A DNA stretch of 13,079 nt from NCBI GenBank assembly GCA_048939765.1, contig JBHLPF010000004.1:76884-89962 (forward strand). The letters run 5' to 3'. Shown here piece after piece: positions 4,939-6,360 of this stretch. The notes under the pieces are model-generated. The model saw only the letters and a program-made list of their open reading frames with translations. It was not told where the DNA came from and searched no databases. Source of the stretch: Promethearchaeota archaeon. Lineage in GTDB: Archaea; Asgardarchaeota; Thorarchaeia; Thorarchaeales; Thorarchaeaceae. Positions within the stretch are counted from its first letter, which is position 1. The number at the start of each line of letters is the position of its first letter. The position numbers were made by a program, and so were the translations under genes.

Positions 4939-5281
4939 GAGCCCACTTATCTAGAGCATCCTGCACGGTTGCGATATGAGCCGCAGCAGGGCCTCCTCCC
5001 ATTACAATAGCCACAGCTGCTGCTTCCATTATCTCATCTCTAGTGGCACCTGCTGATATCGCCTGTTTTGTATGATACACCATGCACGATTCACACGGAG
5101 AGAGGATGGATGCCACAATGCAGATGATCTCTTTGAACTTTGCAGGAAGCGCACCATCCTTGTGGACGGTCTTTAGAAGATCAGTGTAAGCATTCCTTGT
5201 GTCTGGGATATCCCTATTCAGAGCTCCAAAGTGTCTTTGAAATGATTTGAGGATCTGTTCGGCGTCTTCCATTTTTATCAT
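4928..5281 (-). CDS. Carboxymuconolactone decarboxylase / AhpD-like protein with CxxC
   Basis: GALPAKFKEII...CESCMVYH...AISAGATRDEIMEA...MGGGPA CMD signature. ATG 5281 overlaps the ligase TGA (ATGA). ATG 5272 is an alternative. Confidence 0.9.
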   Translation of the reverse strand: MIKMEDAEQILKSFQRHFGALNRDIPDTRNAYTDLLKTVHKDGALPAKFKEIICIVASILSPCESCMVYHTKQAISAGATRDEIMEAAAVAIVMGGGPAAAHIATVQDALDKWAPRK

Positions 5282-6087
5282 CTCGAATGGTATTCTGGGT
5301 TCAATATCCCCAGGTTCCACTCCGACTGGCTGTAGCGGTTCTGATATAAAGCATACGCAGTGGCCAGCTCCTCTTCATTCAACCTGCCAGGGACAATACT
5401 TGCCCTTGTGAACATTTGAATACCCTCTACAATCGCATTGATTATCTCTCTGTCAGAAGGCGGCTCTGGTAAAGCTTCTGAGATTGAAGTCACTATGTCC
5501 TGCTTGCTCTCCATACATCTTATTCTCCTCTTGTCACGGATGTATTGAGGTTGCTTTAAAGGGGCACTGAGACTCTTCCTAAGATGCTCCAGATTTGAGT
5601 TGATGAGCAAAGTACCATGAATGAATGAAATCCCTCGCTTTATCCATCCTGCTGTACCTGTGATCTTCTTCTTGCCGATTCGAATACAGGACCTTTCCTT
5701 ATCAAATTGTGCAGGTATTCCAATATCGGTTAAGCCTCTTGCAACTGTGCCTACGAAGTTGCGATACAGTGCTGGGAGTGTCTTTGCGACATAGGCCTCC
5801 TTTTGATCCATGCAGAGGGTAAAATTCAGGTTGCCCATATCGTGAAACACAGCACCTCCACCAGTGAATCTTCGAGCAATAGCAATCCGATTCTGCCTAC
5901 AGTAGTTGATGTCCGTTTCCTTATGGACACACTGAAACCTGCCGATGACAACCGCATCTGCCGCTCGCCACAGTCGTAGTGTGTTCATCTTTGTCTGTGA
6001 TTCGGAATTAACAATTGCGAGTGCTTCTTCGATAGCGAGATTACGATGTATGTCTACCTCGTCATCCTGAAGAAGCCTCCATGACAT
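5278..6087 (-). CDS. lplA: Lipoate-protein ligase A family, catalytic domain only (BPL/LplA/LipB superfamily)
   Basis: NLAIEEAL, VVIGRFQ, RRFTGGGAVFHDMGNLNFT, KKITGTA, HGTLL and terminal YSQSEWN motifs. SD GTGAGGAG (6104-6097) precedes ATG 6087. Confidence 0.9.
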   Translation of the reverse strand: MSWRLLQDDEVDIHRNLAIEEALAIVNSESQTKMNTLRLWRAADAVVIGRFQCVHKETDINYCRQNRIAIARRFTGGGAVFHDMGNLNFTLCMDQKEAYVAKTLPALYRNFVGTVARGLTDIGIPAQFDKERSCIRIGKKKITGTAGWIKRGISFIHGTLLINSNLEHLRKSLSAPLKQPQYIRDKRRIRCMESKQDIVTSISEALPEPPSDREIINAIVEGIQMFTRASIVPGRLNEEELATAYALYQNRYSQSEWNLGILNPEYHSR

Positions 6088-6149
6088 CTGAGCAATCTCC
6101 TCACTTGGTGTAAAATCCAATCAGGACTAGGTAGTGTCTACACATTAAA

Positions 6150-6315
6150 CCTTGAGGTACAAGAGGGGTGTGATGAGAATGGCAAGGGGGAATGCTGGTG
6201 ACAGAATTTAGTCCATCACCAGCTGATAACCTCGGAGCAGAGTCGAGGTTATAGAGCAGATGTCGTATTTTCGAGGCATGACGCAGGAGGGAATGCTGCG
6301 TCAATATGGACCTCC
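6150..6315 (-). ncRNA. Candidate structured RNA or cis-regulatory leader upstream of lplA
   Basis: Three perfect stems: 6194-6201/6216-6223, 6226-6234/6244-6252 and 6279-6286/6296-6303. The first extends to 12 bp with G-U pairs only on the - strand. Loop motifs are repeated. No known family recognised, and strand and ends are tentative. Confidence 0.45.
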
Positions 6316-6360
6316 GGTGGCCCAATTTAAGCCCGTACACATTTTCTGGTAATCAGACAA

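Follow-up and report, generated by a model that had tools for sequence, protein, structure and literature searches.

What occupies the gap between a small zinc-ribbon gene and a lipoate-protein ligase gene (lplA) in a genome of the Thorarchaeaceae? The gap lies in a 13,079-nt stretch of Promethearchaeota archaeon DNA (assembly GCA_048939765.1, contig JBHLPF010000004.1, forward-strand positions 76,884 to 89,962), called here the window, and coordinates are those of the window unless another contig is named. A sequence-only reading of it, made by a model from the letters and a list of open reading frames (ORFs), had placed at 6150-6315 a multi-hairpin RNA with repeated motifs complementary to start codons and Shine-Dalgarno (SD) sequences. 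Its claim of an undescribed structured RNA on the minus strand is supported here. Judged from sequence comparison, the element is a small-RNA family, with genes of about 90-135 nt, that is absent from Rfam and was previously uncatalogued, and its structure, strand, promoter motif and distribution are well supported. That it is a free-standing, structured, trans-acting small RNA (sRNA) with its own promoter has, in our estimate, a probability of about one half; the multi-seed part of the proposal did not hold up as stated.

As matched by covariance models, the RNA spans 124 nt of the minus strand at 6184-6307 (R1 match G000:C54:83067-83190(-), 141 bits; R2, 113 bits), and it is single copy in the source genome. 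An inverted-repeat search recovered the three perfect 8-9 bp stems described earlier. Hairpin 1 (6279-6303), found by this search and by folding, has an 8-bp stem (6279-6286/6296-6303) and the 9-nt loop GCAUUCCCU, which together with the first bases of the 3′ arm reads CAUUCCCUCC. Hairpin 2 (6226-6252), found in the same two ways, is an optional module with a 9-bp stem (6226-6234/6244-6252) and the 9-nt loop ACUCUGCUC. The perfect inverted repeat of hairpin 3 is 8 bp long (6194-6201/6216-6223); in the minus-strand fold G-U pairs lengthen the stem to 11 bp, two of them G-U (6194-6204/6213-6223), around an 8-nt loop, and the hairpin covers 6194-6223. Between hairpins 1 and 2 runs the single-stranded core UGCCUCGAAAAUACGACAUCUGCUCU (6253-6278), the most conserved part of the RNA, unpaired in both the minimum-free-energy and the consensus folds apart from a 3-bp mini-helix. 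This UCG/CGA mini-helix is all that is left of a weaker fourth stem proposed earlier, and its pairs never vary within the genus. Both repeats reported with the stems are present, GGGAATGCTG at 6188-6197 and 6289-6298, which is part of a 16-nt imperfect repeat, and GAGCAGA at 6235-6241 and 6254-6260. Hairpin 3 is followed by a pyrimidine-rich 3′ tail (AUUCCCCCUUGCCAUUCUCAUC..., 6160-6193), a possible termination zone, with 73% pyrimidine over the 45 nt from the end of the hairpin (~6193-6149).

The minus-strand fold of the 240-nt gap has an energy of -71.6 kcal/mol, compared with -54.3 +/- 4.4 for dinucleotide shuffles (z = -3.91), and none of 200 shuffles was as good. For the plus strand z is -1.94, with 6 of 200 shuffles as good. 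The gap thus folds better than shuffled sequence, most clearly on the minus strand. An enclosing helix between the two TTAA motifs was considered and dropped: it has at most 5 A-U-rich pairs, and a by-eye look at the genus alignment gave no covariation for it.

The gap is recognisably kept in 13 of 16 same-genus genomes, always between the zinc-ribbon gene and lplA. Compared with distant members of the genus, the RNA retains 74-79% nucleotide identity, while lplA retains 58-62%, the zinc-ribbon gene 54-64% and the remainder of the gap 46-55%. In the genus alignment 96% of the cells in the three helices are paired; sliding the 3′ partners lowers the figure to 30-58%. Hairpin 2 shows exchanges of G-C for A-U. 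Across 39 diverse copies, compensatory changes affect 25 of the 27 base pairs, and the paired share of cells is 92.5% (28-55% when slid); none of 500 shuffles matches the observed values, in an alignment that was fitted to the covariance model and hence leans toward the structure. When all column pairs are scanned without this bias, the pairs of the structure come out on top, with no further helix and no extra covarying long-range pairs. Each hairpin contributes: compensatory changes across the family affect 7 of the 8 pairs of hairpin 1 (whose loop sequence is not kept outside the genus) and 10 of the 11 pairs of hairpin 3, and all 8 modelled pairs of hairpin 2 where that hairpin is present. 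Conservation and covariation in relatives, on which the sequence-only reading had staked its case, are therefore both found.

The strand follows from hairpin 3 and from the fold. At three positions the hairpin has G-U pairs that would be A-C mismatches on the plus strand, and these, with the better z-score of the minus-strand fold, fix the RNA on the minus strand.

The same evidence bears on whether there is an RNA gene here at all. The region could instead hold a protein gene (the 79-codon ORF at 6340-6101), a DNA element, a mobile remnant such as a TnpB omega-RNA, or chance palindromes; we regard this as very improbable, and it is already largely refuted. The 79-codon ORF does span the region in the source genome, where it has no Pfam match. 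One-nucleotide indels in the best-conserved stretch, together with a 20-nt deletion in one member of the genus, shift the frame and exclude a coding sequence, and the open frames differ from one species to the next. Neither this ORF nor a 23-codon ORF beginning at CAUGCC is conserved. The compensatory changes and the G-U pairs point to selection on RNA, and the element is single copy rather than repeated and has a promoter of its own at a fixed distance. An omega-RNA had been suggested by the CPKCG zinc ribbon upstream, and the zinc-ribbon neighbour has a weak Cas12f1-like TNB match, below the cut-off. An omega-RNA belongs at the 3′ end of tnpB, or overlaps it, in a mobile element that is often multi-copy; upstream of this single-copy RNA are E1 and E2 genes and a small zinc-ribbon protein gene, and nearly all genomes lack TnpB at the locus, a TnpB-like upstream neighbour being seen in only one examined locus, where it lies just 5′ of the RNA. 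In this genome (G020, genus g5; L032:52-1395), a 447-amino acid (aa) TnpB-like protein with a Cas12f1-like TNB domain (E = 5.9e-15) is encoded directly 5′ of the sRNA promoter, in place of the E2 and zinc-ribbon genes, and is probably an insertion.

Across the family the RNA has a common anatomy, in copies of about 78-138 nt: a variable and covarying 5′ hairpin; a core made of GCCUCG, a short A-rich spacer and ACGACAUCUGCUC; the optional hairpin 2; hairpin 3; and the pyrimidine-rich tail. The core leaves 22-26 nt single-stranded. Within the genus GCCUCG and ACGACAUCUGCUC vary little or not at all, and nearly all 48 family copies retain them, with a variant of the second block in genus g6. Hairpin 3 is typically GCCGGUGG...CCACCGGC and covaries. 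Both the core and hairpin 3 are kept in sequence and not in structure alone; the loops vary. Hairpin 2 is present in genera g1, g3, g5, g7 and g8 and is absent from g4, g6, g28, g29 and most of g25.

The optional hairpin has features of its own. Its 5′ arm and loop seem to duplicate part of the core, and the RNA has two copies of CCUCG...UGCUC. The 3′ arm, CGAGG, is able to pair with either CCUCG copy, and pairing with the copy in the core could serve as a switch. In another genome of the genus (G014; L006/L024, alignment A1 columns 113-132) a 20-nt deletion between the UCUGCUC repeats has taken away the 5′ arm of hairpin 2 and left a 3′ arm that can still pair with the core CCUCG, a natural alternative-structure variant. 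At the g5 loci (L031:1501-1620 and L032:1501-1623) the end of the hairpin 2 loop, GUUGCUC, is a perfect 7-nt complement of GAGCAAC in the hairpin 3 loop. This complement, invariant within g5 and not seen in g1, suggests a kissing loop or an alternative fold.

The first covariance model, built from 13 same-genus copies, found the RNA in 67 of 86 family genomes and in 10 of 16 genera, with one copy per genome except for a bin that has two copies on short contigs. A refined model found it in 19 of 26 sampled family genomes, adding an eleventh of the 16 genera, and gave no match in 125 genomes from 26 other families of the phylum; the refined searches used strict filters and sampled genomes, and these results are to be read as 'not found' rather than 'absent'. 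The RNA appears to be confined to one Thorarchaeota family. A loose pattern scan of all species genomes listed at least 120 matches, mostly random bacterial ones, and among them two in Candidatus Thorarchaeota, one of which seems to be a g28 contig. This lineage is represented here by metagenome bins alone, and the source genome is itself a bin of 3.37 Mb in 108 contigs.

The RNA also appears to be new to the databases. A search of the whole window against Rfam 15 at gathering level returned no match, and a permissive Rfam search with three representatives (from g1, g28 and g5) gave best scores of 9.6-19.6 bits (E = 0.76-10), where gathering thresholds are 36-100. A tRNA search of the locus found none, and a full-text literature search found no publication on Thorarchaeota non-coding RNAs.

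The sequence-only reading had also noted a TATA-like CTTAAAT at 6331-6325 on the minus strand and put the transcription start at the base of the first hairpin, and on both points it has stood. The motif is part of a TATA-type octamer, GCTTAAAT (6325-6332, minus strand), the putative promoter of the sRNA, with a predicted start at ~6303-6301. In 44 of 48 loci from 10 genera, an octamer of the form [CGT][CT]TTA[AT]A[TA] begins 29-33 nt ahead of the position where pairing in hairpin 1 starts; in two further loci it is offset due to a truncated model alignment. Across loci it occurs as CCTTAAAT, CCTTATAT and CTTTAAAT, in surrounding sequence that is not conserved. Similar octamers (e.g. CCTTAAAT and GTTTAAAT) are found 30-39 nt 5′ of several tRNA genes in the source genome, where CCTTAAAT precedes tRNA-Cys. 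A strong TATA-type promoter belonging to the RNA itself is strongly supported as regards the promoter motif. Given the usual archaeal distance from TATA box to start, transcription most likely begins at the base of hairpin 1, near 6302. A scan of the locus for bacterial promoters and terminators found nothing, as expected for an archaeon.

A second TATA-like motif, GGTTTAATG (6143-6151, minus strand; CAAnnnTTAAK in relatives), lies between the RNA and lplA. It is kept in g1, has similar counterparts in g3 and g5, resembles the weaker tRNA promoters of the source genome and may serve lplA as a promoter of its own. Two copies of the octamer TACACATT (AATGTGTA on the minus strand) are present, at 6139-6146, just past the second TATA-like motif, and at 6336-6343, just 5′ of the sRNA promoter.

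Is the RNA a gene of its own, or the leader of lplA? It usually lies just 5′ of lplA and the gene for an AhpD-like protein, and the distance to lplA is 44-280 nt in most loci. In genus g28, however, all four genomes keep promoter and RNA intact with nothing co-oriented downstream: the next gene is convergent, conserved and gelsolin-like, and the upstream gene encodes a polyprenyl synthetase or a methyltransferase. In three of the four, no lplA orthologue was found. Likewise, in genome G048 the RNA sits between two opposite-strand genes, with lplA on another contig. Conversely, five genera, along with the genomes G011 and G019, have lplA without detectable RNA. We favor a free-standing sRNA gene because the RNA and its promoter persist without a co-oriented lplA, because lplA occurs without the RNA, and because of the second TATA-like motif. 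The usual adjacency may then reflect shared regulation or read-through. The convergent g28 protein (88-130 aa; L046:2143-2409(-), L059, L061 and L055) shows the pattern ...YLWKGS...QLAGALAA...IDQGEEP..FL; its likeness to gelsolin was judged by eye, and the assignment is putative.

In such a gene, the RNA would be transcribed from its own TATA-type promoter, starting at the base of the 5′ hairpin. Hairpins 1 and 3 would then act as a clamp, holding out the 22-26-nt, almost invariant single strand (GCCUCG..ACGACAUCUGCUC). The most likely mode of action would be that of a trans-acting riboregulator, whose exposed core and C/U-rich loops, with CCUC/CUCC motifs similar to the CCUCC at the 16S rRNA 3′ end, find G-rich partners by base pairing, probably ribosome-binding regions of mRNAs, or else bind a conserved protein partner. 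The RNA would thereby tune translation or stability. Both the mode of action and the targets are inferred.

Base composition is compatible with such pairing. The RNA is C-rich (31-39% C in most copies), and CCUC/CUCC motifs number 4.3 per copy, 3.1 of them unpaired, compared with 2.0 in shuffles. Their location differs by genus, being the hairpin 1 loop in g1 and g4, the hairpin 2 loop in g3, g7 and g8, and the hairpin 3 loop in g28 and g29. The 16S rRNA of the source genome ends in ...GGAUCACCUCCU, also written ...CACCUCCU, and the motifs therefore mimic the anti-SD sequence. SD sites in this genome are of GGAGG type and start at -16 to -12, corresponding to spacers of 7-11 nt. A C-rich RNA bearing CCUC/CUCC plausibly fits an SD-directed or a protein-binding role and proves neither.

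The more specific proposal, that six tracts of CAU plus pyrimidines make the RNA a multi-seed regulator complementary to start codons and SD sequences, fared poorly, as the motifs are mostly specific to the genome or genus. Two of them are kept across the family, CAUCUGCUC whole and CAUGCCUC only as GCCUC with no CAU; the other four tracts are confined to the genus or the closest relatives. The geometry is also wrong. The complement of loop 1, GGAGG-GA-AUG, has a 2-nt spacer where the SD sites of the source genome have 7-11 nt, and in the core GCCUC lies 5′ of CAU, the reverse of the order required to cover an SD sequence and a start codon colinearly.

Several observations weigh against a free-standing, trans-acting RNA. 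First, the RNA is co-oriented with and directly 5′ of lplA in about 10 genera, although its upstream neighbour has changed at least five times (E2 with the zinc-ribbon gene, a TnpB-like gene, a carotenoid-synthesis gene, UbiA), and this persistence suggests a link in cis. There is also no clear terminator. A run of four or more T within 35 nt past hairpin 3 occurs in 16 of 48 loci, compared with 7% of control windows, which is weak evidence of termination, and the source genome has no such run after hairpin 3; with no clear terminator, read-through into lplA is possible. The 3′ end of the RNA may fall anywhere from ~6193 to 6160, and both ends, and even expression, are predictions. Public contigs looked up for transcript ends were metagenome-type ones that run across the whole gap.

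These points would suit a cis-acting 5′ leader of the operon of lplA and the AhpD-like gene, acting as a riboswitch, an attenuator or a protein-binding leader. The upstream promoter would then drive lplA through a structured region that responds to a ligand or protein by adjusting read-through or translation. Obvious candidates for the signal would be lipoate, lipoyl-AMP or redox state, and a short sRNA derived from the 5′ untranslated region (UTR) could also be released. Besides the persistent adjacency and the lack of a consistent terminator, such a leader would account for two g5 genomes with only 44 nt between the RNA and the lplA ATG, and for the ability of the hairpin 2 3′ arm to pair with two CCUCG copies, an alternative-structure feature. 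A leader should always form the 5′ UTR of a co-oriented gene; the RNA does so in most genera and fails to in g28 (4/4) and G048. The genomes with lplA and no detectable RNA, and the conserved second TATA-like motif before lplA, also speak against it. Conservation is concentrated in one linear strand and the stem of hairpin 3, while loops and junctions, from which a ligand pocket would have to be built, vary. Nor is there cognate-specific pairing with the lplA start region: duplexes between each RNA and its own lplA start region have an energy of -28.8 kcal/mol, compared with -29.2 for non-cognate and -28.7 for shuffled combinations. A switch between the core and the lplA start was likewise rejected. 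GACAUCUG in the RNA matches CAGAUGUC at the lplA ATG here, and the sequence 5′ of the ATG is not conserved in relatives. On balance we consider a leader rather unlikely.

The search for trans targets also weighs against the favored reading. No conserved target was found in the lplA start region, in start regions genome-wide or in rRNA. As an rRNA guide the RNA was rejected, its best duplexes with 16S and 23S rRNA (-26.3 and -24.6 kcal/mol) being within the range of shuffled queries and no complementary word exceeding 7 nt, even with 800-nt flanks. An extended perfect complement elsewhere in the genome was also sought, and only chance-level 11-13-mers were seen; none of the four longest is at a plausible gene start. 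Furthermore, the invariant ACGACAUCUGCUC does not match an anti-SD sequence, and its conservation must have a reason other than SD pairing; the block may be a protein-binding site or the seed for a further target.

A duplex scan of 9,359 candidate start regions ranked a peroxiredoxin gene (AhpC/TSA) first, at -30.4 kcal/mol, where shuffled cores gave -25.4 to -27.5 kcal/mol on one third of the set. The duplex has 23 bp and covers both the SD sequence and the start codon of the second gene of a tandem pair. The candidate is attractive because the CMD protein encoded next to lplA is AhpD-like. As a target for the family it was rejected, a further point against trans action: the complementarity occurs only in the source genome (G000) and its 3-4 closest relatives, and in other genomes, with the RNA core the same, it drops to background or close to it (-11 to -20). 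No such peroxiredoxin orthologue is present in genus g3, which does have the RNA. Peroxiredoxin targeting is at most lineage-specific, and at the family level it is unsupported. Of what is expected of a trans-acting sRNA, the conserved seed-like core is there, and the candidate targets failed either the conservation or the shuffle controls. The tandem AhpC/TSA genes themselves (G000:C57:25248-26215; L212, L216) are 59% identical and 14 nt apart, and the start region of the second reads GGAGCGGAUGUCAUG....

The missing targets lend some weight to an RNA that works chiefly by binding protein, as part of a small ribonucleoprotein or as a decoy that titrates an RNA-binding protein, rather than by pairing with mRNAs. 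The protein would recognise the invariant single strand and the hairpin 3 stem, and in favor of this both are conserved in sequence and not in structure alone. A tRNA-like promoter of constitutive type and a single copy per genome further resemble housekeeping RNAs. On the other hand, no candidate partner protein is linked to the RNA, whose neighbours vary. The RNA went undetected in five genera of the family (g2, g9, g23, g24 and g27) and is hence not essential, and it has no K-turn, no C/D or H/ACA features and no Rfam match. We hold protein binding as the main activity to be rather unlikely.

More speculatively, the RNA could be a dedicated regulator of a module of lipoate, 2-oxoacid dehydrogenase and AhpD-type redox functions. 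It would act either as a ligand- or redox-responsive leader that also releases a stable sRNA, or as an sRNA coupling lplA and the AhpD-like gene to peroxide defence; the latter version would fit the match to the peroxiredoxin start region in the source species group. We think this improbable. If true, it could provide, for example, a first lipoate-related riboswitch, and a first one specific to Asgard archaea.

All genes around the RNA locus are on the minus strand. In order they are the E1α (10021-8957), E1β (8956-7982) and E2 (7980-6748) genes of a 2-oxoacid dehydrogenase, the 122-aa double zinc-ribbon gene (6729-6361), the gap with the RNA, lplA, and an overlapping CMD/AhpD-like gene (5320-4928). 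The double zinc-ribbon gene is the 5′ neighbour of the RNA in genus g1 and is outside the RNA. It is kept between E2 and the sRNA in g1, g3 and g5 at 52-64% nucleotide identity, and its protein has generic zinc-ribbon Pfam matches only (Zn_ribbon_3 and Zn_Ribbon_1). We know of no function for a double zinc-ribbon gene in a 2-oxoacid dehydrogenase cluster.

The usual 3′ neighbour, lplA (5278-6087, minus strand; Pfam LplA-B_cat, E = 5.7e-42), was given a TTG start at 6120 in the ORF list. An SD sequence, GAGGAG (6102-6097), precedes an ATG at 6087. In nearly all relatives the aligned part starts at residue 12 of the listed ORF or only a few residues from it, and most of them have an ATG there, and the public gene call has chosen the 269-aa form. 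The true start is probably the ATG at 6087, and the gap containing the RNA is therefore about 273 nt long rather than 240. A second, distant lplA paralogue (G000:C79:47533-48255, about 257 aa and about 33% identical) occurs in the source genome and in most family genomes, including the g28 genomes that lack an orthologue adjacent to the sRNA.

Elsewhere in the bin, the 16S (G000:C94:64272-65773) and 23S (G000:C41:36305-39388) rRNA genes are on separate contigs and may be unlinked. ARAGORN found only 18 tRNAs; either intron-containing tRNAs were probably missed or the bin is incomplete.

The family has many compensatory changes, a defined promoter and strand and a clear taxonomic range, and could be used as a marker and deposited as a new family. 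For Thorarchaeota it is a first point of entry to regulation by RNA. The CCTTAAAT box at its fixed distance, similar to those of tRNA genes, shows the form that a strong promoter takes in these archaea. A functional link to lplA and the AhpD-like gene, should there be one, would tie riboregulation to protein lipoylation or redox defence. We know of no RNA regulator of either, a point at which no literature search was aimed.

Among known RNA classes, the family alignment has no conserved RUGAUGA or CUGA boxes as in box C/D sRNAs, and the only snoRNA-type match was SNORD35 (12.6 bits, E = 7.3), on the opposite strand. Nor does the RNA have the form of a box H/ACA sRNA: the three hairpins are continuous, without internal loops, and the conserved ACA is found not at the base of a hairpin but within the single-stranded core, about 19 nt past hairpin 1. 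It resembles riboswitches and other leaders in being a structured, conserved element usually just 5′ of, and co-oriented with, one gene (lplA). It differs from them in persisting with its promoter where no co-oriented gene follows, in having no conserved multi-helix junction or pocket, and in the second promoter-like motif before lplA.

Other parallels are found among trans-acting sRNAs. The alphaproteobacterial 'cuckoo' or CcsR-type sRNAs form multi-copy tandem families with CCUCCUCCC loop motifs. The present RNA shares with them anti-SD-like CCUCC motifs in hairpin loops, and a motif that is kept while its position and the stems vary, but it is archaeal and single copy, with CCUC motifs only about twice as frequent as in shuffles. 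Among archaeal sRNAs, Methanosarcina mazei sRNA41 and others like it have been reported to mask ribosome-binding sites in trans. They are from another phylum, and there is no detectable homology; our RNA has, among the targets examined, none with conserved complementarity. It is similar to them as an archaeal sRNA of about 100 nt, conserved in a clade and predicted to have its own transcription unit, for which SD masking by pyrimidine-rich loops is proposed. RsaE/RoxS are C-rich sRNAs of Firmicutes, the kind of RNA with which the sequence-only reading had drawn an analogy, whose accessible C-rich motifs pair with G-rich SD regions. There is no similarity in sequence or covariance model (no RsaE match up to E = 10), and the present RNA is archaeal, has a TATA-box promoter and has an invariant core, ACGACAUCUGCUC, that is not a run of C. 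What it has in common with RsaE/RoxS is the plan of a short, multi-hairpin sRNA with accessible C-rich motifs in loops or linkers that could bind SD regions, in which the single strands that bear the motifs are conserved.

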